This document shows, one piece after another, positions 16,518 through 53,659 of a stretch of DNA of 57,005 nt. The notes beneath the pieces are model-generated. The model saw only the letters and a program-made list of their open reading frames with translations, was not told the origin of the DNA and ran no database searches. Every line of letters starts with the position of its first letter. The stretch's first letter is position 1. Source of the stretch: Alphaproteobacteria bacterium (GTDB lineage Bacteria; Pseudomonadota; Alphaproteobacteria; RF32; CAG-239). The stretch covers positions 1-57,005 of the forward strand of contig JAVBOV010000028.1 in NCBI GenBank assembly GCA_031550205.1, read 5' to 3'. A program made the translations under genes and the position numbers.

Positions 16518-16622
16518 AAAATTTGTCCAAAAAACTCTTGCCCTAACCCCAAAAATATGCTAAATTACCTTCATTCAAACAAATTATCATGTTAATATTA
16601 TAAATTAAAAAAACAAAAAATT

Positions 16623-17119: not shown

Positions 17120-17397
17120 AAACCGCTCATCCATATAAAATTCGCCTTAGTGCAGCTTTTTAGATTTTGTTTGCTCGTTTTGCGGCCTTCGGCTCGTAGC
17201 GTGTTCTGCCGAAAGAAGAATGAGACAGCAGAAGAACAGTAAAAGAGGAAGGCAGAACTTTGCGGAGAGAGCAAAATGAGCATTACAAAATCTTAAAAGC
17301 GGAACTCAGGCGAAAGCCTTTGGTTACTTTGGGCTTTCAAAGTAACAAAACCCTATGCAGATAAAAAACTACGAAAAAAAATAAAGACGAGATTGCC
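17120..17397 (+). repeat. Family-A structured intergenic element, copy 2
   Basis: cgccttagtgcagctttttagattttgtttgctcgttttgcgg...ggcagaactttgcgg...cggaactcaggc, then hairpin gttactttg-ggcttt-caaagtaac (17322-17346), then an A-rich tail ending gagattgcc. Confidence 0.8.
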
Positions 17398-18766: not shown

Positions 18767-20806
18767 CTAAATTCTACCGGTTTTCAATAGGTTATGATAT
18801 TTAAACACCGAACCGTTCGGCACATCCCAGCTAAAATCTTTTTTCATCGCTTTTTGCATCATCTCCTTAATCTTTGATGGATGATTATAAAAAACATCCA
18901 AAGCTTTGCTTAAAGATTCCACATAGGCGTTCACATTGTTCTTCAAGCGCTTGGCAGTCATATTGTTGCCGTAAACCCGCCTGTCCTGCACAAAGAAAAC
19001 CTTGGTTCTGAAACCGTCCACACAATCATCAATCGTATCCACCAAACCGCCGGTTGACATGGCAATCGGCAGCGTTCCCTTGGCCATTGCCTCCATCTGG
19101 GTCAAGCCGCAGGGCTCAAAGCGGCACGGCATCATATAAAAATCCGAAGCCAATTGAATTGCATATGCAAACTCATCGCGATACCCGCGGAACACAAAGA
19201 TTCTCTTTCCGGCTTTCTTATCCATAGCTGAGACCTTGTCCTTAAGCTGCTTCAAAATCTCATAATAAGCCGCATCTCCGGCACCGCCCAAAATCATAAT
19301 CGGATATTCTTTCTTGGCGTCATGATGCTTGGTTAAGAAGCTCAAAATAGCCTGTGCCGCAATATCATATCCCTTTTGTTCGGCCAAACGTGAGGTTGCA
19401 CAAAATACGGGAATTTTATCGGCTTTTTTAATCGCATCGGAAATATCTTCAAACTTATAGGTTTCAACCAGAGGAATTGTCTTGTTTTTATATTCCTTAT
19501 CCGTCGCCAGCCTTGACAACAACTTAATAAACTCCACCTTATTGTGCAGCTTGGTGCTTAAGCTGTTCTCGTCAAACACCTTAAAATCGAACCCGTCAAA
19601 ATATTTGTTAATGCCTTCAATCTTGGCTTTGTTCGGCGAAATCAGCTTTTTGTCATAACCGTTCACAATGCCGAAAAAGTTTCGGTGGTCTTTGCGCATT
19701 TTCAAAATATCACGAAAATCGAAACCAAAACCAAGTTCTTTTGAAACCTCTTCCAAATAATTTTTGGAAACCGTCACCACCCTGTCGGCCAAATGAAAGT
19801 TTGAAGAAGCCTGATTATAGCAGTCGTGCACAATCAAAACATTGGTCGCTCTGGGGTTGGAGTTCTTAATAGCCTTGGCGTTTTTAAACACCGTCATCAC
19901 CATATCTTCATATAAGGAGTTTAAGATTTTTGAGGTGTTTTCATAGTCCCAGCCCTGATACCCCAGATGGTGCGCCAAATGAATAATCGGAATAGATTTA
20001 ACCTTAGCCGCCAGCTCTTCAGGCATCTGCCCGTGCTCGCTTAAGGCGGTGGTAAAATATTTGGTAAGCCCGGCCAGAGCTCCGGAGTGCCAGTCATTGG
20101 CAATCAGCACGTTGGGCTTTTGAATTTTCTCATCAATCTTATAGCAAAGCTCTTTTAAGAGCGTAAAGACGGCTTTGGAAAAGAACGCAAAACGCTCCAC
20201 CTCATTAATGCCGAATTCGTTATAAACATAGCACCCGTCCTGTGCCGAAGGGTTTTCCTTATGCGGATTAATCGAAAAAAAGCGGTCGCTTGATAAAAAC
20301 AAATAATCGGCAGTTCCAAAACGCCCCTTATAAACATCAACTTTATACTTGGTCAAAACGTGCTTATCATTAAAAAATGGCACCGTAATTGTCTTAGCCT
20401 TTTCAAGCTTCACCGAATTTCCTTCGGCGCCGGTATAAACATCATCCTTCAAATGGCATTTTTTCTTGCCCGTATCGCCCAAATAAAGCGGCGTCACCAC
20501 CAAAAGCTTTTCACCGTTTTTTTCAAAGTTTTTATTAAAAGCTTCCGGCAGCTCGGTGGCAATTACGCCAAGCCCGCCCCATTTCATAAACGTTGCGGTT
20601 TCAGCGCTGATCATCCAGGAATTAATCTTGTCAATAACCGGCCACTCGTCTTTGCTTAAACACTGTTTTCTTGAAAAATTTTGAATCTCCAATAGATTCT
20701 TGTTATTCACCACCGGGTAGCTTATTGTGAGCTTTTTCTTGTTAAAACCTTTCGGAAGAGGATTTCTGTTAAGAACTTCTTCCGTTGCGGCGGCTTTAGG
20801 TATCAT
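18767..20806 (-). CDS. Long glycogen/starch synthase-like glycosyltransferase (GT5)
   Basis: N-terminal KWGGLGVIATELP (a variant of K[TS]GGLxDV) and C-terminal RFEPCGLTQMEAMAKGTLPIAMSTGGLVDTI. About 680 aa against about 480 for typical GlgA. ATG at 20806; the track start at 20833 is TTG. Confidence 0.85.
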   Translation of the reverse strand: MIPKAAATEEVLNRNPLPKGFNKKKLTISYPVVNNKNLLEIQNFSRKQCLSKDEWPVIDKINSWMISAETATFMKWGGLGVIATELPEAFNKNFEKNGEKLLVVTPLYLGDTGKKKCHLKDDVYTGAEGNSVKLEKAKTITVPFFNDKHVLTKYKVDVYKGRFGTADYLFLSSDRFFSINPHKENPSAQDGCYVYNEFGINEVERFAFFSKAVFTLLKELCYKIDEKIQKPNVLIANDWHSGALAGLTKYFTTALSEHGQMPEELAAKVKSIPIIHLAHHLGYQGWDYENTSKILNSLYEDMVMTVFKNAKAIKNSNPRATNVLIVHDCYNQASSNFHLADRVVTVSKNYLEEVSKELGFGFDFRDILKMRKDHRNFFGIVNGYDKKLISPNKAKIEGINKYFDGFDFKVFDENSLSTKLHNKVEFIKLLSRLATDKEYKNKTIPLVETYKFEDISDAIKKADKIPVFCATSRLAEQKGYDIAAQAILSFLTKHHDAKKEYPIMILGGAGDAAYYEILKQLKDKVSAMDKKAGKRIFVFRGYRDEFAYAIQLASDFYMMPCRFEPCGLTQMEAMAKGTLPIAMSTGGLVDTIDDCVDGFRTKVFFVQDRRVYGNNMTAKRLKNNVNAYVESLSKALDVFYNHPSKIKEMMQKAMKKDFSWDVPNGSVFKYHNLLKTGRI

Positions 20807-20943
20807 TTTTCTTCTTTCAAATTTATTTTGCAACTTAAGGATGTATCATATGCCAGAAAATATAATAATTCCTTAAATCTTGACTTATGTTCTTTCAATT
20901 CCTACAATATAGCCTAAGTAATTTCATATTTAAAGAGGAAAAG

Positions 20944-21492: not shown

Positions 21493-21527
21493 GTCATTGC
21501 GAGAGGGTGTCTGCCCCGAAGCAATCC
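21493..21527. repeat. GTCATTGCGAG..GAAGCAATCC hairpin repeat
   Basis: gtcattgcgagagggtgtctgccccgaagcaatcc is nearly identical to 29068-29102. Confidence 0.7.
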
Positions 21528-21554
21528 AGCCAAACCAGCCATCCTTATAAAACC

Positions 21555-22237: not shown

Positions 22238-23443
22238 TTACTTAATAGTTTGCTTTATTCTCTTCTTTATAATTGCCCTTATACTGCCTGCTGTTTTTTG
22301 CATTTTTTTCTCATCAAACTTCTCAAACAGCCATTCTGCCGCATCTTCAACGTTCTGCAGTGTAAAAGCCAAAGTCTCTTCTAAAACCTCTTCTCCCACC
22401 CCAATCTCTTCTGCCATTTTCATAAAATGCCGACGACTTATCTTATCCGGGTTATATTCTCCGCCGATACTCATCGCCATGCTTTTACTCAGCTTCGGAT
22501 AAACTTGCGTGGAAACCAAATCATAAAATGGAGCCAGTTTTATCCCTTGTTTAGTATATAAAAAAGAAAAATTTTTGCCATGCGCATCTGAGTTTCCAAT
22601 CACAAAATTAAAAACCGTCAAACGCAAAAACTGCATTTTATCTGCAAGCGGAGAAACCGAATGATTTTCAATAAGCTTAAAACACTGCTTAATCGAAGGT
22701 CCCCCGTCTTTTTGATATTTTTTACCCATCAACCCCAATGCTTGGCAAAAATCTTCCTGATGAACCCTCTTTATAGCCCGCTTCCCTCCCCTGTCATATC
22801 TCTTGGTGCAATAATATAGCCCCTTTTTTGTCTCCTCAATATCGCACTCTGCAACTTCAAACCCCAATATCTTTGCCAAAATCATGCAAAAATATTCATT
22901 ATATACCAAGCCCTCAAAGGCCAGGTTATCCGGCTTAATAATATGCGTAGAAACGTTCTCGCTGTTGGGAATATAAAATTCTCCACCTTTGCAAATCAAA
23001 GCAATTTTATCCTGTGCTCCGGCAAGAGAAAGCCTGACATCTTCTCCGACCAGCATTGGAACTTTCACCCTGTTTTCAAACAGTTCATCCAAATCTTTTT
23101 TCAAAAGCAAAACCGGCTTGGCGGTCTCTTTTTTCTTCAAGCCTGAAAGGTGCAGCGAAACCGCTCCCGCACACTCTTCGCCAAATTCTCTTAAAAAAGC
23201 AAACGGATTATTCGCTGAAAACCCCTTAAGTTTAGCAATAATTTTTCTCAAATCTCCTTCCGGCAAAAGGTTTTCAAAAAAACCTCTGCTCCACCTGTCG
23301 TCAAAAGCTTCTTTTTGCAAAGGAAGTGCCAAAGAAATCGGCCTTGAAGCAGTCTCAAGATACTTAAAGCTCAGTCTTGAATTTTTCTCGGTCAAAACTC
23401 CAACTTTTTCATCAAAAAAGTATACATCCAAAGAAGGCATCAT
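22238..23443 (-). CDS. hipA: HipA-family serine/threonine kinase toxin
   Basis: LSLAGAQDKIAL and VIGNSDAHGKNFSF catalytic-loop motifs. The ATG at 23443 overlaps the hipB TGA (ATGA coupling). The track start at 23458 is TTG. Confidence 0.9.
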   Translation of the reverse strand: MMPSLDVYFFDEKVGVLTEKNSRLSFKYLETASRPISLALPLQKEAFDDRWSRGFFENLLPEGDLRKIIAKLKGFSANNPFAFLREFGEECAGAVSLHLSGLKKKETAKPVLLLKKDLDELFENRVKVPMLVGEDVRLSLAGAQDKIALICKGGEFYIPNSENVSTHIIKPDNLAFEGLVYNEYFCMILAKILGFEVAECDIEETKKGLYYCTKRYDRGGKRAIKRVHQEDFCQALGLMGKKYQKDGGPSIKQCFKLIENHSVSPLADKMQFLRLTVFNFVIGNSDAHGKNFSFLYTKQGIKLAPFYDLVSTQVYPKLSKSMAMSIGGEYNPDKISRRHFMKMAEEIGVGEEVLEETLAFTLQNVEDAAEWLFEKFDEKKMQKTAGSIRAIIKKRIKQTIK

Positions 23444-23649
23444 CTGTTCTCCAGACAAACAACCAAACCAAGCTGCTCAATCACATATAAAACCTTACCA
23501 ACTTGGCAGGTCTCTTTTCCAGCCTCTAAATCAACAATAAAACGAACCCCAACCCTGCAAAAACCGGCCAGTTGCCCCTGCGTCAAACCTTGTTTTTTGC
23601 GCTCTTCTCTAACTCTCTCACCAATTTCTTTAAACTTTTTAACAATCAT
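23440..23649 (-). CDS. hipB: XRE-family HTH antitoxin (HipB-like)
   Basis: IGERVREERKKQGLTQGQLAG helix-turn-helix. Lies directly upstream of hipA and is translationally coupled to it. ATG at 23649. Confidence 0.8.
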   Translation of the reverse strand: MIVKKFKEIGERVREERKKQGLTQGQLAGFCRVGVRFIVDLEAGKETCQVGKVLYVIEQLGLVVCLENR

Positions 23650-29067: not shown

Positions 29068-29102
29068 GTCATTGCGAGAGGGCGTCTACCCCGAAGCAAT
29101 CC
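29068..29102. repeat. GTCATTGCGAG..GAAGCAATCC hairpin repeat
   Basis: gtcattgcgagagggcgtctaccccgaagcaatcc. Confidence 0.7.
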
Positions 29103-29104
29103 AC

Positions 29105-29254: not shown

Positions 29255-29283
29255 TTGACATTTTAGACAAAAAATGCGATTAT
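29255..29283 (+). promoter_or_regulatory. Sigma-70-like promoter
   Basis: TTGACA-17 nt-GATTAT, 44 nt upstream of the ATG at 29327. Confidence 0.4.
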
Positions 29284-29326: not shown

Positions 29327-29938
29327 ATGGCAAAAATTATTCTACCCATGGGCCCTTCATCATGCGGTAAAGGCTACCTAACCAACGAAATTATCAAACC
29401 TTATTGCGAAAAGCATGGCAAAAGATTAGTAGTCATAAGCACCGGTGAGTTATTACGCGAAGAAGTCGCCAACCAAACAAATCTTGGGAAATTAGCAAAA
29501 ACCTTTATAGATAAGGGCATACTGGTCCCGGATAGGCTGATTTGGAGTATGTTTGAAAAAAAGCTCTTAAGCTTAGGGCCAAATATTCCCAATCTTTTTA
29601 TCATAATCGATGGCCTTCCGCGAAATTTATTCCAGCTTGGTGCTCTTTGGCATTTGATACCTCAGCATTTTGAAGATGAAAAAGTCGAAGTAATTGCTAT
29701 TAATGCCGAAGAGCGAATACTTATTGAGCGCATGCTAAAACGAGCCGAAAAAGAAAAACGCAGCGATGATTATAAGGAATCCTTCTATCAAAAGATGGAT
29801 GTCTACCGAAAAGATGTCTTCCCTACTGTACGGAAAGCAGCAGATATTATCGTTTGGAAAAATTTCCACATCATTGACGCAAATCAAGATCTAAAAGAAA
29901 TCGATCATTCGTCAATGCTAAATCAAATTTTCAACTAA
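29327..29938 (+). CDS. Divergent adenylate-kinase-family nucleoside monophosphate kinase
   Basis: P-loop GPSSCGKG, LVPDRLI and IIDGLPRN blocks parallel the adenylate kinase blocks GPPGxGKGT, LVPDE and LxDGFPR. Standalone gene. Confidence 0.7.
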   Translation: MAKIILPMGPSSCGKGYLTNEIIKPYCEKHGKRLVVISTGELLREEVANQTNLGKLAKTFIDKGILVPDRLIWSMFEKKLLSLGPNIPNLFIIIDGLPRNLFQLGALWHLIPQHFEDEKVEVIAINAEERILIERMLKRAEKEKRSDDYKESFYQKMDVYRKDVFPTVRKAADIIVWKNFHIIDANQDLKEIDHSSMLNQIFN

Positions 29939-29945
29939 ACCAAAA

Positions 29946-29974
29946 GGCCTTGAGTTCTCACTCAAGGCCTTTTT
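29946..29974 (+). terminator. Rho-independent terminator
   Basis: ggccttgagt-tctc-actcaaggcc followed by ttttt. Confidence 0.75.
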
Positions 29975-29991
29975 AAATAAATCAATTCAAT

Positions 29992-30095
29992 GAGTTTGAT
30001 TTGTGAGCGTGCTACGCAGTGATTTTGCGGGCGTGAGTGTACGCTTTTGTACATGAGCCCGCAAAATTACAAGTATGACGCCATAAATCAAACTC
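29992..30095. repeat. Family-B ~100-bp palindromic element, copy 1 (abuts the hydA stop codon)
   Basis: gagtttgattt...gattttgcgggc-gtgagtgtacgcttttgtacatga-gcccgcaaaatt...aaatcaaactc. Homologous to 40890-40992. Confidence 0.8.
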
Positions 30096-31885
30096 TACTT
30101 CGGCTCAACAGCTTCGTCTTTCTTATACGCCTCACGCTTAACATAATGCGTATGCAAAAGCTCGTGTGCCTTGTGCGAAGACGGTTTTTCCAAAAATTCA
30201 TCATAAAGCTTCTTAATCGATTCGTTATGGTGAGAGAAATGGTTCTTCATTCCCTTATCCTCATCCAGCAAACCTTTGGCGCGCTTTAAGCGAATATCGT
30301 TGGTAATGCCGCGAGGTTTCTGCTGATCAGGAAGCAAGGCTCTCGGCTGTCCGCCGCCGGAAATACATCCGCCGCGGCAAGCCATAACCTCAACAAAGTG
30401 ATACGGAGTTTCAAGGCCTGCCTTCTTGGCCTCGCGAACCTTTTGCAAAACCTTTTCCACATTTCCGGTTCCATGCGCCACCGCAATACGAACCTTGTTT
30501 CCGGCAACGTCAATTTCAGCTTCCTTAACGCCTTCCAAGCCTTCAATCTGCTTAAAATTAACCGTTTCCAGCTCTTTGCCGGTAATGTAAAAATAGGCCG
30601 TGCGCAAAGCCGCCGTCATAACCCCGCCGGTTGTGCCGAAGATTGTGCCAGCGCCGGAATATTCACCCAGCGGATTATCTGCCTGCTCATCTTTTAAAGC
30701 CCTGAAATTAATGCCCGACTGCTTAATCATTCTTGAAAGCTCTCTGGTGGTCAAAGACACGTCCACATCTTGGAACCCTGAAGATCTCATGTCTTCGCTG
30801 CGCCTGATTTCCCACTTTTTGGCTGTGCAGGGCATAATTGAAATCACCCTGACCTTAGCTGGGTCAAGCCCCATTTTCTGGGCATAATAAGTCTTGGCCA
30901 TAGAGCCCACCATCGATTGCGGAGACTTACAGCTTGAGAAATGAGAAATCATGTCATGATGATACTTTTCCATCAAATCCACCCAAGACGGGCAGCAAGA
31001 TGTAATCAAAGGCAGGCTGTCCGGCTGCTTGGTAAACCTGTTCACAAACTCGGTTGCTTCTTCAATAATGGTCAAATCTGCACCAAAGTTGGTGTCAAAT
31101 ACCTTGGAAAAGCCCAAGCGGCGCAAAGCGGCATAAAGCTTGCCGGTCAAATTTGTGCCGATTTCATAGCCGAAATCTTCGCCGATTGCCACTCTAACCG
31201 CCGGAGCAATCTGCACAATAGTGTGCAAATCTTTGTCATTAAGCATATCCCAAACCTTTTGGGTCTCGTCATACTCAACAATTGCACCGGTCGGACAGTG
31301 TGCCGAACATTGACCGCACTTAATGCACGGACTCTCGTTTAGTGGAATTCCGCCGGCAGCCGTAATTTTGGTTGCCAATCCGCGGTGCAAAAAGCCCAAA
31401 GCCCAAACGTTTTGCTGATGCTGACAAACTTCCACGCAGCGTCCGCAGGTAATGCATTTTGAAGCATCCAAAACAATCGATTTTGTAGAATCATCAATCG
31501 GGTGCATCTTAGTTAGGTTGGGAAGTCTGGCCTCTCTAATCCCAAAGTCCTGCGTAATATCTTGCAACTCGCAGGTTCCTGAGCGAATGCAGGTCAGACA
31601 GGAGTTCGGATGGTTGCTCAAAATCAGCTCCAAAACCGTTCTTCTCACGCTCACCAGTTCCGGGTCAGAGGTAATAATGTTCATACCTTCTTCCGCCGGC
31701 GTGCAGCAAGAGCGCAAAATTCTGCCGTTAACCTTAACAATGCACAATCCGCAGCCTGCTGACGGGTCAACATCCGGGTGCTTGCACAAAGTAGGAATAT
31801 CAATCTGAATGTTTCTGGCTGCTTCTAAAATTGTCGTACCCTGAGGAACTTCAACATCAAAATTATCAATCTTTAATTTCACCAT
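30095..31885 (-). CDS. hydA: [FeFe]-hydrogenase catalytic subunit (M3-type, with C-terminal small-subunit-like tail)
   Basis: H-cluster motifs TSCCPSW, MPCTAKKWE and EVMACRGGCISGGGQP. N-terminal 2Fe-2S domain, HPNSCLTCIRSGTC, and two CxxCxxCxxxC ferredoxin motifs. Confidence 0.95.
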   Translation of the reverse strand: MVKLKIDNFDVEVPQGTTILEAARNIQIDIPTLCKHPDVDPSAGCGLCIVKVNGRILRSCCTPAEEGMNIITSDPELVSVRRTVLELILSNHPNSCLTCIRSGTCELQDITQDFGIREARLPNLTKMHPIDDSTKSIVLDASKCITCGRCVEVCQHQQNVWALGFLHRGLATKITAAGGIPLNESPCIKCGQCSAHCPTGAIVEYDETQKVWDMLNDKDLHTIVQIAPAVRVAIGEDFGYEIGTNLTGKLYAALRRLGFSKVFDTNFGADLTIIEEATEFVNRFTKQPDSLPLITSCCPSWVDLMEKYHHDMISHFSSCKSPQSMVGSMAKTYYAQKMGLDPAKVRVISIMPCTAKKWEIRRSEDMRSSGFQDVDVSLTTRELSRMIKQSGINFRALKDEQADNPLGEYSGAGTIFGTTGGVMTAALRTAYFYITGKELETVNFKQIEGLEGVKEAEIDVAGNKVRIAVAHGTGNVEKVLQKVREAKKAGLETPYHFVEVMACRGGCISGGGQPRALLPDQQKPRGITNDIRLKRAKGLLDEDKGMKNHFSHHNESIKKLYDEFLEKPSSHKAHELLHTHYVKREAYKKDEAVEPK

Positions 31886-31896
31886 TTTCGTTTCCC

Positions 31897-33570
31897 CTAT
31901 TTCTTCTTCTCTTTTTTAATCTTATCCATATATTCTTTTTCAAAGAAATGCAGTGTTGAAAGCACCGGGTTGGGCGCTGTCTGACCCAATCCGCACAAAG
32001 ATGCCTTTTGCATTGCATGTGCAACGCCTTTCATTTCTTCAATATCTTCCATTGTAGCGCGGCCGGCAATAATCTTTTCCAGCAAAAGCACCAGCTGCTT
32101 GCCGCCCACACGGCACGGAGCGCACTTGCCGCAAGATTCATCAACTGTAAAGTCCAGATAAAACTTGGCAATATCCACCATGTTGGAAGTATCATCCATC
32201 ACAATCATGCCGCCCGAGCCCATAATCGAACCCACTTTTTTAAGTTCTTCATAACAAACCGGCAAATCCATCTGTGAAACCGGAATCACGCCGCCGGAAG
32301 GCCCGCCGGTCTGCACCGCTTTTAGTTTTTTGCCGTGCGGCACACCGCCGCCGATTTCATTAACAATTTCATTTAAAGTCGTACCCATCGGCACCTCAAT
32401 CAGGCCGATATGCTCAACCTGGCCTGAAAGCGCAAACACTTTGGTTCCCTTGGAAGTGGCCGTGCCAAAAGAACTGAACCAGTCTGCTCCTTTCAAGATA
32501 ATGGTCGGAATATTGGCCAAGGTCTCAACGTTGTTAACGCAAGAGGGCTTGCCCCACAAACCATGGTCTGTCGGATACGGCGGACGTGGACGCGGAGTAC
32601 CGCGGTTGCCTTCAATCGAGCGAATAAGCGCGGTTTCTTCGCCGCATACAAACGCGCCGGCACCAAGCCTCACTTCAATATTAAAAGAAAAATCCGTTCC
32701 CAGAATATTTTTGCCCAAAAGCTTATATTTGCGGGCATCTTTAATCGCCTTTTCCAAGCGCTCCACCGCCAAAGGATATTCGGCGCGCACATAAAACCAG
32801 CCTTCGGTCGCCCCAATGGCATAAGCGCCAATCATCATGCCCTCAATAACCTCGTGCGGGTTTCCTTCCAAAATTGAGCGGTCCATATACGCACCCGGGT
32901 CGCCTTCGTCACCGTTGCAGATAATAAACTTTTCATCCACGGTTGGAACTTTGGCCGCAAATTCCCACTTCATGCCGGTCGAAAAACCGCCGCCGCCGCG
33001 TCCGCGCAGACCGGATTTCTTAATTTCCGCCACCACATCGGCCGGCTTCATGGTTTTCAAAACCTTCTCCAAGCCCAAATATCCGCCGTGAGAAATATAT
33101 TCGGCAATATCTTCCGGGTCCAAGTGTCCGGCGTCTTTCAAAACCACTTTTTCCTGCTTGGTGAAAAAAGGCAAATCCAAAGAAAGAACGCACTCTTCCA
33201 AAACCTTCGGCAGGGTCATCTGCTTTCCGGACTCCAGCTTTAAAGCCGGCACCACATGCTCATCAATAATTGTTTTCATTGTTGGCGCATCAACCAGTTT
33301 ATACAGCACGTCTTTCTGACCCTTAACCTCAACCCTGATCAACGGCCCCTGAGCGCAAAGCCCCATGCATCCGGTTGGCACAATCCTGACCTTTTCTTCA
33401 ATTCCGTGCACTTTAAAAGCTTCTTTCATGGCCGCAATCAAATCATCGCTGCCAGAAGATTTGCAGCCGGTGGAATGGCAGCAATAAATGTTGCATAAAA
33501 ACTTGTCTAAAAGCTGTTTTTTTTCTTCTGCAACAAAGTGAATGTCGTATTTATTATCAACTTCTGCCAT
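31897..33570 (-). CDS. hydB: NuoF-like flavoprotein subunit of the trimeric hydrogenase
   Basis: N-terminal thioredoxin-like 2Fe-2S cysteines, FMN/NADH site GLRGRGGGGFSTGMKW, and 4Fe-4S ESCGKCAPCRVG...CGLGQ. The ATG at 33570 is preceded by aaggag; the track start at 33639 is TTG. Confidence 0.93.
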   Translation of the reverse strand: MAEVDNKYDIHFVAEEKKQLLDKFLCNIYCCHSTGCKSSGSDDLIAAMKEAFKVHGIEEKVRIVPTGCMGLCAQGPLIRVEVKGQKDVLYKLVDAPTMKTIIDEHVVPALKLESGKQMTLPKVLEECVLSLDLPFFTKQEKVVLKDAGHLDPEDIAEYISHGGYLGLEKVLKTMKPADVVAEIKKSGLRGRGGGGFSTGMKWEFAAKVPTVDEKFIICNGDEGDPGAYMDRSILEGNPHEVIEGMMIGAYAIGATEGWFYVRAEYPLAVERLEKAIKDARKYKLLGKNILGTDFSFNIEVRLGAGAFVCGEETALIRSIEGNRGTPRPRPPYPTDHGLWGKPSCVNNVETLANIPTIILKGADWFSSFGTATSKGTKVFALSGQVEHIGLIEVPMGTTLNEIVNEIGGGVPHGKKLKAVQTGGPSGGVIPVSQMDLPVCYEELKKVGSIMGSGGMIVMDDTSNMVDIAKFYLDFTVDESCGKCAPCRVGGKQLVLLLEKIIAGRATMEDIEEMKGVAHAMQKASLCGLGQTAPNPVLSTLHFFEKEYMDKIKKEKKK

Positions 33571-33574
33571 TTTC

Positions 33575-34057
33575 TTACTCCTTACCGCCGGCTTGGTTAT
33601 TCTGCTTCCACTCGTCAACAATCGGCTTAACGCCCTCAACGGTCATGCGGCCATAGGTTTTGCCGTTAACCACCACCACCGGAGCCAAACCGCAGCAGCC
33701 GACGCAGCGCACGCATTGCAGGTGAAACTCCTTATCCGGAGTGCTCTCGCCTTCCTTAATGTTAAGCAGTTTTTTAAACTCTTCCAAAACCTTGTCGTTG
33801 CCCTTAAGGTAGCAGGCCGTTCCGGTGCAAACCGAAACCACGGCCTTACCCGGAGCCTCAAGTTTGAAGAAGTTATAAAACGTAAGCACTTCATAAATTC
33901 TGGCCATGGGCACACCCATTCCGTAAGCCAGTTCCAAAGCGCTGTCCCAAGGAACATATCCGTTGGTTTCCTGAATTTCATGAAGAGCCATAATCAAAGA
34001 GCCTCTTTTGGCCTTCCACTTAATTGCGGCCTTTTGGGCTGCAGAAATTTCCGCCAT
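33575..34057 (-). CDS. hydC: NuoE-like 2Fe-2S subunit of the trimeric hydrogenase
   Basis: CTGTAC...CVRCVGCCGLAPVV cysteine pattern of NuoE/HydC. ATG at 34057 after ggtgg; the track start at 34066 is GTG. Confidence 0.92.
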   Translation of the reverse strand: MAEISAAQKAAIKWKAKRGSLIMALHEIQETNGYVPWDSALELAYGMGVPMARIYEVLTFYNFFKLEAPGKAVVSVCTGTACYLKGNDKVLEEFKKLLNIKEGESTPDKEFHLQCVRCVGCCGLAPVVVVNGKTYGRMTVEGVKPIVDEWKQNNQAGGKE

Positions 34058-34229
34058 TTTTACCACCTTTTCTTATAAAAAATCCAAATTTGAATTAGAC
34101 TTACCATATTATGTAAAATCTTCTTATTCAAGCATAAATTGCTCTCTTCCATAATAAACTTGTGTTTCAAAAAGTTTCACTCTAAAATTTGTTTGTTTTC
34201 TAAAAAATATTTGATTATACTCGTCCCTG

Positions 34230-39361: not shown

Positions 39362-39368
39362 CATTCAC

Positions 39369-39399
39369 GTCATTGCGAGGCCTTTAGGCCGCGGCAATC
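39369..39399. repeat. GTCATTGCGAGG..GCGGCAATC hairpin repeat
   Basis: gtcattgcgaggcctttaggccgcggcaatc is nearly identical to 54849-54879. Confidence 0.7.
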
Positions 39400-39496
39400 T
39401 CATTCTTACCATCCATATTTTGTCTAAATCTCTATTGCATTATCCCCAAACTTATGCTACCCTCCCCTCAAATCAAAATTATTAAATCATATCATT

Positions 39497-40633
39497 ATGG
39501 AAAAAACATTATTTAACGGCAACATCTTAAAAGTAAGACTAGCCAAATTTAACAAAAATCGTCGGGTTTTAACTATTGAAACGCCGGATGGCGAAGAGCT
39601 ATTCCGAAAAAAACTTTCTTTAAACTTCATAATTGCAACACATTTCAATTTTGTTTGCTTTTACGATTATAAGAACAATTTTTTCTCTTCAAATACCGCC
39701 TGGCTAACCGCCAACGGCCAACTCTTAAGCGACGACTACCAGCCTTTTGCAGAAGAAGACTTCGTTCCCGCCGGCATCATCGCCACCAACAAAATCAACG
39801 GTCTAACCGGTTTAATCGATTTTCTTGGCAATGAAATTATCCCCTGCGGATATAAAGACATCATTGAGTTCAAAAAAGCCACCCACCCCGGATGTCCGAA
39901 AGGTTGGTTTGCGCTAAGAAAAAGCAGCGATCTTCTTATGGGCTTAGCCAACAAAGAAGGAAATATTGTCATTCCGGCAATATATGATGATATCAGCTTC
40001 ACCCCGTTTCACATAATCGCCGAAGATTCTCAAAAAAATTATTTTCGCTTTTACGATTTTAAAGGAACAATAAAAGGTGAGCTCGAAAAAGTGGACTTTG
40101 ATAAGAAAAACAATGTTTACAAGGTCATGACTAAAGTCGGCTTTGACATTTTGTCCTCTGATTTAAAAAGCATTCTGCCAAATGAAGTGCAAAAAAACAT
40201 ATTAAAAGATACATTTGTTTTTACTGCTCGTCATACAAATCTTTTTAACGGTGGCAAGGTTATCCTCTATCCCGACAAAGAAGGCCGCATCAGGATTTAT
40301 GGTTCAAAAAACAACCATAAAAAAGGCAACGACGTTTCTGAATTTGACGACATGTGGTTTTTCAAACAGCAAATCTGCGAACAAGGCTTTGCCCTGTTAA
40401 ACCAAGACTGGGTTATCTTCGATAAACAAGGCAACGCTCTTGCTTCAATGCTGATAGATGATTTAAAGCTGCTTCCGGAGGGAATCGTGCTCTATAAGCG
40501 TTCTTTTTCCGGCAAAACCAAACAAGGTTTTATGGATTGGAAAGGAAAACTGCTCTATCCCATTACTTTTGATGAAATTGTATTCAAAAAAGGAGTAGCC
40601 CTCGGAAAAAACAATTCTATTTTCGACAAATGA
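39497..40633 (+). CDS. WG/KWG-repeat-like protein (paralogue of 53694-54764)
   Basis: Repeated units of the form G(L/F)xxxxGxxVIPxxYDxIxxF (GLIDFLGNEIIPCGYKDIIEF, GLANKEGNIVIPAIYDDISF). Clear paralogy to the second copy, including the leader. Confidence 0.65.
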   Translation: MEKTLFNGNILKVRLAKFNKNRRVLTIETPDGEELFRKKLSLNFIIATHFNFVCFYDYKNNFFSSNTAWLTANGQLLSDDYQPFAEEDFVPAGIIATNKINGLTGLIDFLGNEIIPCGYKDIIEFKKATHPGCPKGWFALRKSSDLLMGLANKEGNIVIPAIYDDISFTPFHIIAEDSQKNYFRFYDFKGTIKGELEKVDFDKKNNVYKVMTKVGFDILSSDLKSILPNEVQKNILKDTFVFTARHTNLFNGGKVILYPDKEGRIRIYGSKNNHKKGNDVSEFDDMWFFKQQICEQGFALLNQDWVIFDKQGNALASMLIDDLKLLPEGIVLYKRSFSGKTKQGFMDWKGKLLYPITFDEIVFKKGVALGKNNSIFDK

Positions 40634-40668: not shown

Positions 40669-40873
40669 ATCTTATCAGTTACTGTCTAAATTATTTTATA
40701 CACATAAGCCCGAATTTACCGACCTCGGGCTCCTAAAACCAAACTATATGAATAAAACAATCCCAAATTTCGCACGCGTCCGCAACAAATCGCCGGCTGC
40801 TGTTTTGAATAATGGTTAATTTTTACTACATGACACTTAAAAAGCTTCCTTTGCACTGGGAAGCTTTTTTTTT
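40669..40873 (+). ncRNA. Candidate ~200-nt transcript of unknown class, bounded by a promoter and a terminator
   Basis: Begins just after the TTGACA/TAATAT promoter and ends at aaaagcttcc-tttgcact-gggaagctttttttt (40840-40873). Has an internal hairpin agcccga-N11-tcgggct. I could not match it to SRP, 6S, tmRNA or RNase P motifs. Confidence 0.3.
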
Positions 40874-40889
40874 AAAAAACCAATCGATA

Positions 40890-40992
40890 GGCTTGATGTG
40901 AGGGTGTGCTGCGCCGTAACTTTGCAGGCGCGAGTGTACACTTTAGTACATAAGCCTGCAAAATTACAAGCATGACGCCCTCAAAGCAAGCC
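40890..40992. repeat. Family-B palindromic element, copy 2 (abuts the aroK stop codon)
   Basis: ggcttgatgtgagggtg...ctttgcaggc-gcgagtgtacactttagtacataa-gcctgcaaaatt...cgccctcaaagcaagcc. Confidence 0.8.
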
Positions 40993-41717: not shown

Positions 41718-42721
41718 ATAGACCTGTCTCAAAATTGAATTTTTCGGGTCAAATGGAGGAAGACCCGGAGCACAGAAGCGGAGTGTACACTTTAGTACCT
41801 GAGCATTCGAGCACCGGAAGCGACCACGCAGTTGAGCAGAAAAAACAATTTATAGACAGGTCTAAAGACCAGATCAGAAATTTCCTAAATACCATTGTCG
41901 CTGAAAAAGGCGCATCAAAAAACACAGTTGAAGCCTATAAAGCAGATCTGGAGCAATTTTTTGAATTCAGCTCCACCTGCAATAAGGAAGATTTATCTGA
42001 CTTTATCAGATATTTAAGCACTCAGGGCTTTGCCGCCAAAAGCATCAACCGCAAGGCCTCTGCCCTAAGAGAGTTTTTTAAGTTTTTGTTTTCTGAAAAA
42101 GAAATCAAAGAAAACCCGGCTGTCCACTTGTCCGGCCCCAAGGCTGAAAAACCGCTGCCCAAATTTTTAACCGAAACCGAAATCCGCAAATTGGCAGAAA
42201 ACGCCAACGACATCAAAATTCGCTGCATGATAGAACTGATGTACGCCTGCGGCCTGCGTGTTTCAGAACTGGTCAGCCTGCCTGAAAACTGCATCAATTT
42301 TGAAAGAAAGCAACTCTTGGTCCGCGGCAAAGGCTCCAAAGAAAGAATTGTGCCCATCAGCGATTCGGCCGCCAAAATCGCTTTGGAGTATTTAACTTTC
42401 AGAGAAAACAGCTTAAAAAGAAAATCGGTTTGGTTTTTTCCATCTTCCCGCTCCGCTTCCGGCCACCTAACCAGAAATGCTTTTTTCAAAAGAATTAAAG
42501 ACATCGGAGCCAAGGCCGGCATCTATGCCCAAAGGCTTTCCCCCCATGTCTTAAGACACTCTTTTGCCACTCATTTGTTAAACCACCACGCCGACCTGCG
42601 CAGCGTCCAAAAAATGCTCGGCCACGAAGACATCTCCACCACTGAAGTCTACACCCACATCATCACAGGCCAACTAATCAAAACCATCCAAAAAAACCAC
42701 CCCTTAGCTAAGAAACATTAA
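41714..42721 (+). CDS. xerD: Tyrosine recombinase XerD with a 48-aa N-terminal insertion
   Basis: SAM-like N-domain (IRNFLNTIVAEKGASKNTVEAYKADL) and catalytic region with RVSEL, GKGSKER, HVLRHSFATHLL and GHEDISTTEVYTH. There is no in-frame ATG/GTG/TTG between codon 14 and the conserved core. Confidence 0.93.
   Translation: MNRPVSKLNFSGQMEEDPEHRSGVYTLVPEHSSTGSDHAVEQKKQFIDRSKDQIRNFLNTIVAEKGASKNTVEAYKADLEQFFEFSSTCNKEDLSDFIRYLSTQGFAAKSINRKASALREFFKFLFSEKEIKENPAVHLSGPKAEKPLPKFLTETEIRKLAENANDIKIRCMIELMYACGLRVSELVSLPENCINFERKQLLVRGKGSKERIVPISDSAAKIALEYLTFRENSLKRKSVWFFPSSRSASGHLTRNAFFKRIKDIGAKAGIYAQRLSPHVLRHSFATHLLNHHADLRSVQKMLGHEDISTTEVYTHIITGQLIKTIQKNHPLAKKH
41720..41863. repeat. 144-bp inverted-repeat element inside the xerD coding sequence (family-B related)
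   Basis: Termini are agacctgtctcaaaattg ... caatttatagacaggtct. The core gcggagtgtacactttagtacctgagc matches the family-B core. Length is exactly 48 codons. Confidence 0.75.
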
Positions 42722-43440: not shown

Positions 43441-43733
43441 AACCAACTATCCTTATACTCTTTCTTTCCTGCCTTAGGAAAAGTATTTAGATTTTGTTAG
43501 CGTAGTCTTGCGTCCTTCGGCTTGAGCGTGAGTCCTGCCGACTTAGAAAGTAAGACAGCTAAAGAACAATAACTCACTAAGGCAGGACATTAGCGAGAGA
43601 GCAAAACGGGCATTACAAAATCTTAGAAAGCGGAACTCAGGCTGCCTTTTTTGCCATACTTTTTGGGCAAGCAAAAAGTATGAAAACTACGTGCAGGTAA
43701 TAAACTCTAGGAAAAAAATACGAATGAAATTGC
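43441..43733 (+). repeat. Family-A structured intergenic element, copy 3 (most diverged)
   Basis: aaccaactatccttat...cctgccttagg...gtcctgcc / ggcaggac...cggaactcaggctg, then hairpin catacttttt-gggcaagc-aaaaagtatg (43655-43682), then an A-rich tail ending gaaattgc. Confidence 0.75.
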
Positions 43734-43756: not shown

Positions 43757-45160
43757 CTACATTGAGCCAATCAAAGAAACAGAAGAAATCGTATCCCCCA
43801 TCCCCACCAAAGTCTTCGGCTTTTCAATCAATATTGTCGGCACGGCAATCACATCAAACCCCTGATATTCAAAAAGCCCCGTTTCCAAAAGACTCTTGTC
43901 TTTCACCAGCTTTGCCAAATCTTCCAGCTCTTTAAGCCCGACATCTGAAACTTCTTTGCCCTTGGCCCACATCAGATTTTTATATTTATCAATGTCTCCA
44001 AGTCCGGCCTTGCTGGCTGAAACCGTGGCCGCCAGCATCATGCCTTTGCGGCTGTCTTTGGGAGAAATGGTAAAATCCTTGTCCTGCACCGTAATATAAA
44101 GCCCAAACATGTGCAGTTGAACTCGCGGCACCTTAATCTTTTCTTTCAAAGCCAAAATAGCTTGCAGCATATTGCCTGCCGTGGTTTTATCCTGACAAAG
44201 CTTTGCCAGCTTTTTCTCGCTGATAATTTCCAAAAAATCAATGGTTTCTCGCTCATTGCAGCCAATCGAAGCCGCCAATGGCGCCACTTTTTCAAAAATC
44301 GCCTTTCTAATCTTCAAATCCTGAGTCGAGGCAAGTTCCACGTGCAGCATTGCCTCGCTTTTTGCCCACTCTTTAATCATCGGCAAAGATTCCTTAATCA
44401 GCTTTTCCCCGCCGGCGCTTGCCGTCAAAGCATGATACCCTGAAACCACAATGCAGTCCGTTTTGGCTTTGCTTACCTTCTGCACAAAAGCCTCATCGCG
44501 CACTAAATTAAGATTTAAGGGGTCATAAGTGGCAATAAACCGATTCGCCTTCGGGCACACAAACCTCTGTCCCTCAATCTCCCAAACATCGCCCTTGTTA
44601 AACTCAATAATCCAATGAATCAGCGGCACGTCTGCCTTGCGGTTAATCTTATACGCCGGCTTTTCTTTGCCCTTGGCATCAAAAGAAACCAAATTTTTCA
44701 GCTTAACAAATTGCTCGGCCTGCATTTTGGGCAAAGAGTTGCAGTGCGCATATACTTTTTTCAAACCCAAAACCGCAAGGGCATTCGCCACAATTCCGCC
44801 CTGTCCGCCAATCTGCAAACGGTCATATCCCAGATTTTCAACCATCCAGTCATAAACCGCAATATCTTCTGAAATCCACTCTTCGGCAATACCCTGACTA
44901 AAACTCTTAAAAACTCCCCTAAGCACATCTTTGCCGGACTTTAACTTAAGCTCTTTAATGCTCTGCAAGTCTTTCAGGCACATTTCCTCCTGCTTGAGCA
45001 GGCGCAGAAACTTAACCGGCTTAATCTTCAGCACGGCGTCAATATTGGCATTAAAAGCGGCTGCAGCCGTTTTCTTGCCTTTAAGTTTTTTTAATGCTTT
45101 TGGAACAACTTTATAATTTTCAAGCCATACTTTTTTCAAATTTTCATCAGTCTTCATCAT
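43757..45160 (-). CDS. ADP-dependent sugar kinase (ADP-glucokinase/phosphofructokinase family)
   Basis: QIGGQGGIVANALAVLG, ANRFIATYDP, LHVELAST and C-terminal VGMGDTISSVSL match the blocks I recall for archaeal and eukaryotic ADP-dependent kinases. Overlaps the hemY-like stop by 14 nt. Confidence 0.85.
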   Translation of the reverse strand: MMKTDENLKKVWLENYKVVPKALKKLKGKKTAAAAFNANIDAVLKIKPVKFLRLLKQEEMCLKDLQSIKELKLKSGKDVLRGVFKSFSQGIAEEWISEDIAVYDWMVENLGYDRLQIGGQGGIVANALAVLGLKKVYAHCNSLPKMQAEQFVKLKNLVSFDAKGKEKPAYKINRKADVPLIHWIIEFNKGDVWEIEGQRFVCPKANRFIATYDPLNLNLVRDEAFVQKVSKAKTDCIVVSGYHALTASAGGEKLIKESLPMIKEWAKSEAMLHVELASTQDLKIRKAIFEKVAPLAASIGCNERETIDFLEIISEKKLAKLCQDKTTAGNMLQAILALKEKIKVPRVQLHMFGLYITVQDKDFTISPKDSRKGMMLAATVSASKAGLGDIDKYKNLMWAKGKEVSDVGLKELEDLAKLVKDKSLLETGLFEYQGFDVIAVPTILIEKPKTLVGMGDTISSVSLIGSM

Positions 45161-46229
45161 CTTCTTCTCTTAAATTTTTTTCTTCCAAAAGGCTTTCTTC
45201 CACATCCAAATAAATCTGCCACTCTATTTTGCCAAAAGCCCCGCAATTAGAACATGTTGCCTGCCATTTGTCATATGCGCTGCCGCAAACTCCGCAGACC
45301 CAGGCGGAATTTTCCGCGCAGTTCTCAATTTTTCCCTGCCAGCTCTTTGCCGCTTTTTTATCATTGTTATGATTGGTCTCATACTTGGCAATCATTTTGC
45401 ACATTTCTTTAGTACACGGATTATTAATCAAAAACTGCTCAAACTGCGCCTTGGCCTTGGCCCAAAGCCCGGCTTTAGAATAAAGCTCCGCCAAAATCAT
45501 GTTGTTAAGCGCCGGAAGATTGCGATTATAACTGGTAAAATGCTCCATTTTTTCAACTTTTTCCAACGGTCCCAGACCGTGAAAAATTTTCAAATATTCA
45601 TCCGCCAAATCTCTAACCGGATTTTTCTCCCAGGCACCAAGCAGCATCTTGGCGGCTTTTTTGCGGTCTTTTTCATATTTTGCCATCAAAACCACCGCCG
45701 GAACCAAAGAGCCATCCGTATTAACCGCATGCTGACAAAGCCGGTTAAAGTTTTCTTCATCTCCTTTGAGCTTAACCTCTTTAGCAATTTCAAACAAAAT
45801 TATCGCCTTATATTTTTTATATTTTTCAATCGAAATCAATTCTTTGCCGAAAGCCCCGTCCAAAACCTTAAGCGCGCCATACCAGTTTTTTTGCTTGGTT
45901 CTTGCTTCCAGAGCGCTTTCCACTGCCCAGCGTAAATCCTGAGTTTGTTTTTCCCCTTTAAATTTTCCGCTTAAAATGTTCAAATCCGTATCCCGCAGAC
46001 TAACCTCATGCAGGGTGTTGGGATTATGTTTAAAAAGCCTTTCCAAAAGGTTTCCCAAAAATTCTGCCAAAATCACATATACCAAAACCAAAATCAACGC
46101 TTCCAGCAAAGAAAATTTTTCAAGACTGCCGTTCCAAGAAACATTAATATAGCTCTTCCTGTCCACGCCCCAAATCGCCACGGCAATAATCAGTCCGGCC
46201 AATATAAAGCTGGGAACTTTCCTGCTCAT
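45147..46229 (-). CDS. HemY-like TPR membrane protein with a C-terminal zinc ribbon
   Basis: Two N-terminal TM segments, TPR-like helical repeats, and C-terminal CGVCGSAYDKWQATCSNCG. Sits directly after the mic60-like gene, as in alphaproteobacteria. Confidence 0.75.
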   Translation of the reverse strand: MSRKVPSFILAGLIIAVAIWGVDRKSYINVSWNGSLEKFSLLEALILVLVYVILAEFLGNLLERLFKHNPNTLHEVSLRDTDLNILSGKFKGEKQTQDLRWAVESALEARTKQKNWYGALKVLDGAFGKELISIEKYKKYKAIILFEIAKEVKLKGDEENFNRLCQHAVNTDGSLVPAVVLMAKYEKDRKKAAKMLLGAWEKNPVRDLADEYLKIFHGLGPLEKVEKMEHFTSYNRNLPALNNMILAELYSKAGLWAKAKAQFEQFLINNPCTKEMCKMIAKYETNHNNDKKAAKSWQGKIENCAENSAWVCGVCGSAYDKWQATCSNCGAFGKIEWQIYLDVEESLLEEKNLREEDDED

Positions 46230-46230
46230 T

Positions 46231-47112
46231 TCAGTTCTCCTTTAACTGGTTAATTTTCATCAACGCCAAAGAGCCGGCAGATATCTTGGAAAAAGCGCTC
46301 TCAAACTCAACCCTTTGTCTGGCTTTTGCCTTCCAGCCCTCAAAAGAAGGGTTATCCGAGTTTTCCATCTTTTTCAAAGCTCCGGAAAAATTGCCTTTCA
46401 AAACATCTTCCCTGGCCAAATCCAAAGAGTTATCTTCATTGTCTGTCGCCAAGTTGGTTTTTCTAATCTGAACAATTTCCTTAAACTTATCCATCAGCCT
46501 TTGCTTCCAGCTGAGCTTTTCGGTTTCTTCCTTTTTGCCGGTCTTTTTATATATGCTTTCAAAGCCGTTTATCAAATCTCTCTCAGTGCTGATGCCTGTT
46601 TCGGAAGCGGCAGCAATAACTTTAACCGGCTCGGCAATCTCTTGGTTTTTTGCCGTCATTTGGCGCAAAATTTCCGCCTCAAAAGCAAACTCCTCACCTC
46701 TGTCTGCTCTGTCCTTAACCAACATCAGAGCGTTCAAAATCAAAGCTCCGCTGTCGCTGACCTTGGCAACCGTATCAACCTTGCTTTCCATCTTGTCTAA
46801 ACGTGTTACCAAACCCAAAACCGTGGCAATATCCGCCTTAGAATCAATAATGCTGATATTTTGCTTTTCCATGCGCTCCAGCTTGGCATCCAGACCTGAT
46901 AAATCGACCTTTTCATGCGTATTGTTCTGTAAAAACAACACTTCTTTTCTTAAAGACTCAACTTCAGCCTGAAGAGAATTTATCTCTTTTTGATTATTAA
47001 ATTTAGCCGCCGTTTCTTCTATAATTTTCGGGTTCTGATAAATAAAATATCCGCCGCCGCCGATTGCCGCCAAAAAGATAATAAGATAAAAAAAGCTTTT
47101 GATTTTTTGCAT
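46231..47112 (-). CDS. Alphaproteobacterial Mic60-like (HemX-like) protein: TM anchor, coiled coil, mitofilin-like C-terminus
   Basis: N-terminal TM segment FFYLIIFLAAIGGGGYFIY, a long coiled coil, and a C-terminal block LAREDVLKGNFSGALKKMENSD..FEGWKAKARQRVEFESAFSKIS. Lies between hemY-like and divergent tsaD. Confidence 0.6.
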   Translation of the reverse strand: MQKIKSFFYLIIFLAAIGGGGYFIYQNPKIIEETAAKFNNQKEINSLQAEVESLRKEVLFLQNNTHEKVDLSGLDAKLERMEKQNISIIDSKADIATVLGLVTRLDKMESKVDTVAKVSDSGALILNALMLVKDRADRGEEFAFEAEILRQMTAKNQEIAEPVKVIAAASETGISTERDLINGFESIYKKTGKKEETEKLSWKQRLMDKFKEIVQIRKTNLATDNEDNSLDLAREDVLKGNFSGALKKMENSDNPSFEGWKAKARQRVEFESAFSKISAGSLALMKINQLKEN

Positions 47113-47196
47113 TTTGATTCCTCTAGAATGAATCTTGATTATAAACTTTATGTAGTTTATTATTCTTTAACAAAAATATCAACTTGGAAAATGTTC

Positions 47197-53602: not shown

Positions 53603-53630
53603 TCGGCAAAACACTTTGTCTAAAAACCTC

Positions 53631-53659
53631 TTGCTTTAGACCAAAAAATCTGTTATATT
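53631..53659 (+). promoter_or_regulatory. Sigma-70-like promoter of the second WG-repeat gene
   Basis: TTGCTT-17 nt-TATATT. The paralogous position at 39435-39463 reads TTGCAT-17 nt-TACCCT. Confidence 0.4.

Follow-up and report, generated by a model that had tools for sequence, protein, structure and literature searches.

The window analysed here, a 57,005-nucleotide contig (JAVBOV010000028.1, assembly GCA_031550205.1) from an uncultured alphaproteobacterium (GTDB order RF32, family CAG-239), carries a three-gene operon, hydC-hydB-hydA, that encodes a trimeric [FeFe]-hydrogenase. HydB, the predicted NADH-binding subunit, appears to have lost the branch that leads to ferredoxin in electron-bifurcating enzymes. 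We consider the operon to encode a native, vertically inherited, heterotrimeric NAD(H)-linked [FeFe]-hydrogenase that descended from electron-bifurcating HydABC and lost its ferredoxin branch, a reading to which we assign a probability of roughly 0.6. An initial annotation of the window had placed the genes among the group A3 electron-confurcating hydrogenases. The HydC/HydB/HydA operon is real, but the label rests only on gene order, and the HydB to which it was attached is without the ferredoxin branch. The operon has been known in gut alphaproteobacteria since 2016, and the variant architecture of HydB is the point that appears to be new.

HydB ends before the ferredoxin-docking domain

HydB consists of an N-terminal thioredoxin-like [2Fe-2S] domain (PF01257, residues 27-103), a Nuo51 flavin mononucleotide (FMN) domain (Complex1_51K, 1e-46), an SLBB domain and the NuoF [4Fe-4S] domain, which holds cluster B1 (NADH_4Fe-4S, 1.5e-29). 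The last Pfam domain stops at residue 548 of 557. No Pfam match to a Fer4 domain was found in HydB, and the precomputed Pfam annotations of its relatives likewise contain none. Among solved chains HydB matches those of A. mobile (661 bits), A. woodii (646 bits), T. kivui (567 bits) and T. maritima (533 bits), which are 597, 599, 630 and 626 amino acids (aa) long against 557 in the window. In the PDB alignments the bifurcating HydB chains reach about 68 aa past the last aligned position; the window HydB ends 5 aa past the aligned core and has no CxxCxxCxxxC motif. Its terminus falls at about residue 565 of the 630 in T. kivui HydB, which is the start point of an experimental deletion, P565-G630. 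HydB also stops 14-19 aa past the last aligned NuoF-core residue in all 20 alphaproteobacterial loci that we collected. Across the whole 57 kb, no CxxCxxCxxxC motif occurs outside HydA. We considered whether the missing domain is encoded separately nearby and excluded this, as the window holds no other ferredoxin-type motif and none of the relatives has an extra gene in the operon.

A second site has gone with the tail. The Zn/B2 ligands of A. mobile, C438, C476, H525, C531 and C536, correspond in the window HydB to N, I, K and, for the last two, to no residue at all. The C438 position is N or D and the H525 position K in 20/20 orthologues. The HydB of a Melainabacteria locus (HydA 57% identical) has the CxxxxC pair and the two ferredoxin motifs along with C438 and H525, and these last two residues are also kept in A. 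mobile and A. woodii HydB. The cysteines of the N-terminal [2Fe-2S] cluster (C31, C36, C68 and C72) and those of B1 are invariant across the clade. By these alignments, HydB is without the C-terminal 2x[4Fe-4S] ferredoxin-docking domain and without all five Zn/[2Fe-2S] ligands.

In the published structures HydB's C-terminal domain carries the B3 and B4 [4Fe-4S] clusters and the ferredoxin docking site, and forms the low-potential exit; the P565-G630 deletion in T. kivui HydB left low bifurcation activity (PMC10021017). The site beside the B3/B4 domain was modelled as a five-ligand [2Fe-2S] cluster in A. mobile (PMC8880783) and as a Zn 'hinge' in T. maritima (PMC9499530). By the definition of Schut et al. 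(2022; PMC9304861), BfuB has both the NuoF core and a 4Fe-4S ferredoxin-type domain (IPR017896; B3/B4), and non-bifurcating homologues are without B3/B4-type clusters (PMC9304861; PMC11406978). Of the Bfu features, the window has the N-terminal [2Fe-2S] cluster of BfuB and a NuoE-like BfuC, and it lacks the B3/B4 domain and the B2/Zn ligands.

Residue markers and tree position point to secondary loss

A second predictor is available in the residues around the flavin. According to Losey et al. (2020), non-bifurcating beta subunits have T/S and K/S/A at positions 232 and 234 of the T. maritima protein, Y at position 367 and no GGPSG motif (PMC7311640). The two published predictors disagree on the window HydB as read from its sequence: the residue markers call it bifurcating and the cluster complement non-bifurcating.

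We searched HydB against 1.84 billion representatives clustered at 50% identity, tabulated their features and computed a neighbour-joining tree from the core region. The nearest representatives share 50-56% identity with HydB, and the majority combine C438 and H525 with a tail of about 70 aa that contains two CxxCxxCxxxC motifs. The window clade and one further tail-less protein (P0121; 63% identical, 565 aa) nest among these full-length HydB proteins, and the sequences with the non-bifurcating signature (T-K, Y) branch separately from the window clade, in other parts of the tree. Membership of the S. wolfei type was rejected on both the residue markers and the tree position. Because HydB keeps the bifurcating flavin-site residues and the N-terminal [2Fe-2S] cluster, and because it nests among full-length bifurcating HydB, the absence of the ferredoxin branch points to secondary loss from a bifurcating-type HydB.

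Tail-less HydB proteins without C438 and H525 were also observed beyond the gut alphaproteobacteria, at positions 1-688 of locus L018 (metagenome-assembled genome (MAG) JBBREK010000013.1, Planctomycetota), in P0121 and in P0127; P0127 is in addition extended at its N-terminus by about 100 aa. The ferredoxin branch has therefore been lost more widely than in the window clade alone. The clade also has cysteines of its own in HydB: C30, C344 and C439 are invariant and present in P0121 as well, and C26 is replaced in one orthologue. None of these four is found in the HydB of A. mobile, A. woodii or the Melainabacteria locus.

Gene organisation and the catalytic subunit

All three genes are on the minus strand, arranged head to tail (Table 1) and separated by spacers of 4 nt (hydC-hydB) and 11 nt (hydB-hydA), in the tight packing that had been described for them. 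An AGGTGG ribosome-binding site precedes the ATG of hydC. The list of open reading frames (ORFs) offers alternative starts for hydC (GTG, 34066) and hydB (an upstream TTG, 33639). Between hydC and the divergent lptF there is a sigma-70-like match on the minus strand (34180-34151), which is a consensus match only. HydC matches PF01257 (2Fe-2S_thioredx, 7e-46), contains the CxxxxC...CxxxC cysteines and is 66-74% identical to its 20 alphaproteobacterial orthologues.

The HydDB rule for group A3 is based on gene context. The gene organisation is of the A3 type, with a group A HydA adjoining a NuoF-like HydB and a NuoE-like HydC that have the expected Pfam domains.

All three H-cluster motifs reported earlier for HydA were recovered verbatim within Fe_hyd_lg_C: TSCCPSW at residues 295-301, MPCTAKKWE at 351-359 and EVMACRGGCISGGGQP at 499-514, which satisfy the L1 (TSCCPxW), L2 (MPCxxKxxE) and L3 (ExMxCxxGCxxGGGQP) patterns. 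The Pfam matches of HydA comprise Fe_hyd_lg_C (PF02906, 9e-96), Fe_hyd_SSU (2e-22), Fer2_4, NADH-G_4Fe-4S_3 and two Fer4 domains. Its accessory motifs, an N-terminal [2Fe-2S], a His-ligated [4Fe-4S] (H92...C105) and two CxxCxxCxxxC, make up a complete M3 architecture. HydA scores 792.8 bits against NF040763 ('NADH-dependent [FeFe] hydrogenase, group A6'; cut-off 765) and 515 bits against TIGR02512 (cut-off 406), and its closest solved relatives are the HydA1 proteins of A. woodii and T. kivui (573 bits). Family searches of the ORFs of at least 150 aa found no hydE, hydF or hydG maturase gene in the window, as had been noted before. tRNA and Rfam scans of the window gave no matches.

Table 1. 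Features of the hydrogenase operon and of its surroundings in the window
Feature	Position	Strand	Description
hydC	33575-34057	-	160 aa from ATG; NuoE-like [2Fe-2S] subunit
hydB	31897-33570	-	557 aa from ATG; NuoF-like FMN/NADH subunit
hydA	30095-31885	-	596 aa; M3-type catalytic [FeFe]-hydrogenase subunit
Divergent hydC/lptF intergenic region	34058-34229	.	Presumed site of the hyd promoter
Bidirectional intrinsic terminator	29942-29973	.	Common to hydA and the convergent adk-like gene; 14-bp stem, T-runs on both strands
118-nt dispersed repeat	29970-30087	-	Lies between the stop codon of hydA and the terminator, in the 3' untranslated region of hydA; long imperfect hairpin
Short palindromic family (GTCATTGCGAG...GCAATC)	21493-21528, 29068-29103, 39367-39403, 54847-54883		
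adk-like gene	29327-29938	+	Adenylate-kinase family (PF00406, 5e-23); below every NCBIfam adk cut-off
ADP_PFK_GK gene	43757-45160		Family match
GT5 starch-synthase-like gene	18767-20833		Family match
Tim44-like gene	50879-51514		Family match

The operon is native to a gut-type lineage

When one genome per GTDB species was scanned, 22 loci were returned, 20 of them from alphaproteobacterial MAGs that include 'Azospirillum sp. 51_20' and 'uncultured Azospirillum sp. MGYG-HGUT-03859'. The HydA proteins of these 20 are 66-79% identical to that of the window, and the sample names of related MAGs point to human, rabbit and ruminant guts. The order hydC-hydB-hydA is present in every one of the 20, and in 12 the operon stands beside lptF-lptD-surA-rsmA in the same divergent arrangement. 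One locus, L002, is collinear with the window through a stretch of about 21 kb that takes in both sides of the operon, from aroK-xerD through fabG-fabD-HIT-ftsK-grpE-GT5. A chimeric contig was rejected on the strength of this collinearity. Over the 12 syntenic loci the identity of HydA follows the mean identity of the flanks (r=0.90).

The initial annotation had called for a comparison of codon usage and GC content with the flanks, and in this comparison the hyd genes look native. Their GC content at third codon positions (GC3) is 0.53-0.59 against 0.485+/-0.067 for the other genes, within the housekeeping range, and few genes in the window have a smaller synonymous-codon distance. Because synteny is conserved, codon usage and GC3 are native and HydA divergence tracks that of the flanks, we conclude that the operon belongs natively to a gut-type, uncultured alphaproteobacterial lineage, in which it is old, and that the contig is not chimeric. 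This is the lineage deposited under the names 'Azospirillum sp. CAG:239 / 51_20' or 'uncultured Alphaproteobacteria'. The alphaproteobacterial backbone proposed earlier is borne out by the collinearity with L002 and by relatives titled Alphaproteobacteria or 'Azospirillum' gut MAGs. The two scenarios that had been set against it, a recent transfer from Firmicutes or Thermotogae and a chimeric contig, are contradicted by synteny, codon usage and co-divergence.

In the species-genome scan the best HydA from outside the Alphaproteobacteria is only 57-59% identical. A large protein collection holds HydA clusters of 441, 329 and 199 members, with one HydA allele on 531 contigs and one found on a contig of 1.95 Mb; the best match there is 82% identical to the HydA of the window, and public assemblies have no record of the identical protein. 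Judged by these identities, the window adds a new species to a group that is already well sampled. We also observed HydA homologues (P0007, P0010 and L023; two of them 79-80% identical) under the MAG names 'Lactobacillus sp.' and 'Lactobacillaceae bacterium'. These labels are probably wrong, and the HydC/HydB/HydA organisation of the entries is that of the alphaproteobacterial clade.

Predicted mechanism and alternatives

The core motifs are all present, namely those of the H-cluster, the HydA clusters, the FMN/NADH site and B1 [4Fe-4S] of HydB, the N-terminal [2Fe-2S] of HydB and the [2Fe-2S] of HydC. With similar confidence to that given above, we predict a ferredoxin-independent, reversible NADH:H+ oxidoreductase. 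Electrons would pass from NADH to FMN, to B1, to the HydA clusters and to the H-cluster, or in the reverse direction, uncoupled from ferredoxin. Only at low H2 partial pressure would the enzyme evolve H2 from NADH; at the higher H2 levels that a gut may reach, the reaction would run from H2 to NAD+. A different hydrogenase, with its genes in another part of the genome, would deal with the ferredoxin that comes from pyruvate oxidation. For relatives, maturases, pyruvate:ferredoxin oxidoreductase (PFOR) and a second type of [FeFe]-hydrogenase are reported (PMC4967309). NADH-driven H2 formation requires H2 at roughly 1-40 Pa (PMC13556243, PMC7311640), and the enzymes of S. wolfei and S. aciditrophicus form H2 from NADH alone (PMC7311640). 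We weighted the cluster complement over the residue markers because it is backed by experiment and because its loss takes away the physical path to ferredoxin.

Several points weigh against this reading. The window HydB shows every bifurcating marker of Losey et al., which are A..M (in PGAYMD), F (in GAGAFVCG) and GGPSG, and it keeps the N-terminal [2Fe-2S] domain that is missing from S. wolfei-type enzymes. The T. kivui deletion variant kept 'low', not zero, bifurcation activity (PMC10021017). By analogy with monomeric CpI-type enzymes, ferredoxin could still donate to the HydA clusters. The genes for maturation and for other metabolism lie outside the window.

It is possible, although we think it rather unlikely, that the enzyme is still electron-confurcating (group A3/Bfu-type) and that ferredoxin or flavodoxin docks elsewhere, for example at the N-terminal [2Fe-2S] cluster, at HydC or at a site formed by the clade-specific cysteines. 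The flavin-site residues (A..M, F, GGPSG) would fit this, as they are invariant in the clade together with the cysteines of the N-terminal [2Fe-2S] cluster and of HydC; so would the conservation of C30, C344, C439 (invariant) and C26 (all but one orthologue). The closest solved relatives are all bifurcating enzymes, and PFOR and ferredoxin are reported for relatives (PMC4967309). However, the B3/B4 ferredoxin exit and the Zn/B2 site are both gone, the definition of the Bfu family demands the 4Fe-4S ferredoxin-type domain in BfuB (PMC9304861), and the matching engineered deletion loses most of the bifurcation activity (PMC10021017). We regard as more doubtful the idea of a naturally minimised HydABC that still couples ferredoxin (or flavodoxin) and NADH without Zn/B2 and B3/B4. 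[quoted passage not shown]

The remaining alternatives concern the origin of the operon. That it descends from, or is a close relative of, the source of the HydA plus NuoE/NuoF metabolism of hydrogenosomes seems to us very unlikely. The host is alphaproteobacterial and the subunit logic is the same, the M3 hydrogenases of gut alphaproteobacteria were placed next to eukaryotic ones by Degli Esposti et al. (2016; PMC4967309), and a ferredoxin-independent enzyme would mirror the non-bifurcating Hyd-NuoEF of anaerobic fungi (PMC13556243). The window HydB, however, is of the HydB type (533-661 bits) and not of the complex-I type (about 270-390 bits), so the earlier statement that the window has the same NuoE/NuoF as hydrogenosomes amounts to an analogy. 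Published trees put hydrogenosomal NuoE/F with mitochondrial complex I and the NuoE/F of eukaryotes with that of Alphaproteobacteria rather than with HydB/HydC, and they find eukaryotic HydA to be polyphyletic, without an alphaproteobacterial signal (PMC7449678, PMC13556243). The HydB architecture of the window would also be derived, by secondary loss. The relevance to hydrogenosome origins that the initial annotation had seen was indeed argued for this clade in 2016 (PMC4967309), but it was later contested (PMC7449678) and is weak. Least probable of all, in our view, is a recent island from Firmicutes or Thermotogae bounded by repeats, or a chimeric contig. Repeats do lie between fabG and hydA, the closest solved HydA structures come from Firmicutes, and the neighbouring adk-like gene is compositionally atypical and missing in relatives. 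Against an island, the hydC-lptF junction is repeat-free and conserved in 12 species genomes, and the collinearity with L002, the native codon usage and GC3, the co-divergence of the Hyd proteins with the flanks and the low identity of the best HydA from outside the Alphaproteobacteria in the scan all speak for a resident operon. We therefore retain the native, NAD(H)-linked enzyme with a lost ferredoxin branch as the best explanation.

Repeats and other features of the window

The operon is flanked by fabD-fabG on one side and by lptF/G-lptD-surA-rsmA on the other (LptF_LptG, LptD, SurA and RrnaAD matches), and these flanks, like the ADP-dependent kinase, the starch-synthase-like gene and the Tim44-like gene, agree with the initial annotation. 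A 'Mic60-like' protein, also listed there, was not recovered: the positional candidates (46231-47112 and 45147-46229) gave no Pfam match to Mitofilin at E<=0.05. The ORFs at 45147-47112 on the minus strand lie beside tsaD (46990-48261), in the usual alphaproteobacterial position of Mic60 and its TPR partner, and gave weak TPR matches only.

The hydrogenase block had also been described as bounded by repeats. Both repeats exist, but they lie only beyond the end of hydA, around the adk-like gene, and their presence does not indicate mobility. The 118-nt repeat has a second copy at 40867-40984 (77% identity) and a partial one at 41781-41804, and the fold of 29940-30094, which spans the repeat and the terminator, has an energy of -65 kcal/mol (z = -9.5 against shuffled sequence). 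It looks like a structured element resembling miniature inverted-repeat transposable elements or repetitive extragenic palindromes (REPs), and would be transcribed with the 3' untranslated region of hydA. The other repeat is a 36-nt REP-like palindrome whose copy at 29068-29103 matches that at 21493-21528 at 94%. Copies of this family directly follow the stop codons of grpE, fabG and rsmA, and the fourth lies about 80 nt past an ORF ending at 54764. In the adk-like gene, which the repeats flank, GC3 is 0.37 and codon usage is atypical; the gene has a promoter-like site of its own (29255-29283), and none of the 22 related loci contains it. A lineage-specific insertion is therefore probable, and it is this gene, not the hydrogenase operon, that forms the atypical and possibly inserted segment.

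Elsewhere in the window there is an intergenic repeat about 240 nt long, with two full copies (2771-3015 and 17136-17380; 84% identical), one partial copy (43463-43653) and no Rfam match at gathering thresholds. A conserved segment of about 70-90 nt (16522-16630, 39419-39504 and 53615-53701) precedes the ORFs at 16623-17078, 39497-40633 and 53694-54764, two of which code for WG-repeat proteins; the segment may serve all three as a common promoter or 5' leader. Accessory-looking genes at 1785-2546, 22238-23458 and 320-1735 include a low-GC metallo-beta-lactamase-fold gene (a weak match to Anti-Pycsar Apyc1, below cut-off), a HipA-family kinase and an AAA_14/DUF4143 ATPase.

Comparison with known systems

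The cluster of NuoE-like, NuoF-like and M3-hydrogenase genes in gut metagenomic alphaproteobacteria, and the inference to hydrogenosome origins, were published by Degli Esposti et al. in 2016 (PMC4967309). The hymABC-like cluster of Azospirillum sp. CAG:239 (CDB53275-77) and Acetobacter sp. CAG:977 in that paper shares with the window the kind of organism, the three genes and the evolutionary argument. The window is from a different species, and the passages of the 2016 paper that were consulted do not note the absence of the HydB ferredoxin branch. None of the CAG:239 and CAG:977 accessions of that paper was found among the members of the HydA clusters that we went through. We found no description of a clade-wide loss of the ferredoxin branch in a bifurcating-type HydB; our literature search was incomplete and 'undescribed' is provisional.

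For all subunits the closest solved relatives are the bifurcating HydABC of A. woodii, T. kivui and T. maritima (PDB 7q4v, 8a6t and 7p5h) and the NiFe-HydABCSL of A. mobile (7t2r). The window shares with the bifurcating HydABC enzymes the M3 HydA, the N-terminal [2Fe-2S], FMN and B1 sites of HydB, cluster C1 of HydC and the flavin-site residues. Unlike them, its HydB has neither the B3/B4 domain nor the Zn/[2Fe-2S] ligands. The resemblance to S. wolfei-type HydABC lies in the NuoE/NuoF/HydA trimer, in a beta subunit without ferredoxin-domain clusters and in the predicted NADH-only reaction. The beta subunits of that type, however, have the T/S..K/S/A and Y residues, lack GGPSG and form a separate clade, whereas the window HydB is of the bifurcating type with an N-terminal [2Fe-2S] cluster. 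As judged from these differences, the loss in the window clade is independent of the S. wolfei type. In the 'sub-type II' BfuABC of Hydrogenedentota and Acidobacteriota, BfuB is likewise without B3/B4, for which reason the enzyme is termed non-bifurcating (PMC11406978), but it also lacks the N-terminal cluster (B5 there) that the window HydB retains.

If gene order is used to call group A3 enzymes confurcating, a whole and very widely sampled gut lineage would be misassigned. The disagreement between the two predictors makes this clade a natural test of the roles of the C-terminal domain and the Zn/[2Fe-2S] site of HydB. An NADH-only hydrogenase, if true, would tie these bacteria to low-H2 niches or turn them into H2 consumers, and would bear on models of gut H2 cycling.

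The hydrogenosomal Hyd + NuoE + NuoF systems of Trichomonas and Caecomyces churrovis follow the same logic, in which a NuoE/NuoF-type NADH module feeds an [FeFe]-hydrogenase, and the fungal Hyd-NuoEF complex has been demonstrated to be ferredoxin-independent (PMC13556243). Eukaryotic NuoE/F derive from mitochondrial complex I and not from HydB/HydC (PMC7449678, PMC13556243). Against complex I, the window HydB scores 391 bits with Thermus Nqo1 and about 270-306 bits with mitochondrial NDUFV1 chains, roughly half of its scores with HydB/BfuB chains, and those complex-I chains are without its N-terminal domain. Because HydB and HydC are not complex-I-type NuoF and NuoE, the parallel with hydrogenosomes, as far as the protein families go, is functional only, and the operon adds little to the question of hydrogenosome origin. 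The window most likely encodes a HydABC that was 'de-bifurcated' independently and is a bacterial counterpart to the Hyd-NuoEF of fungal hydrogenosomes, which works without ferredoxin.

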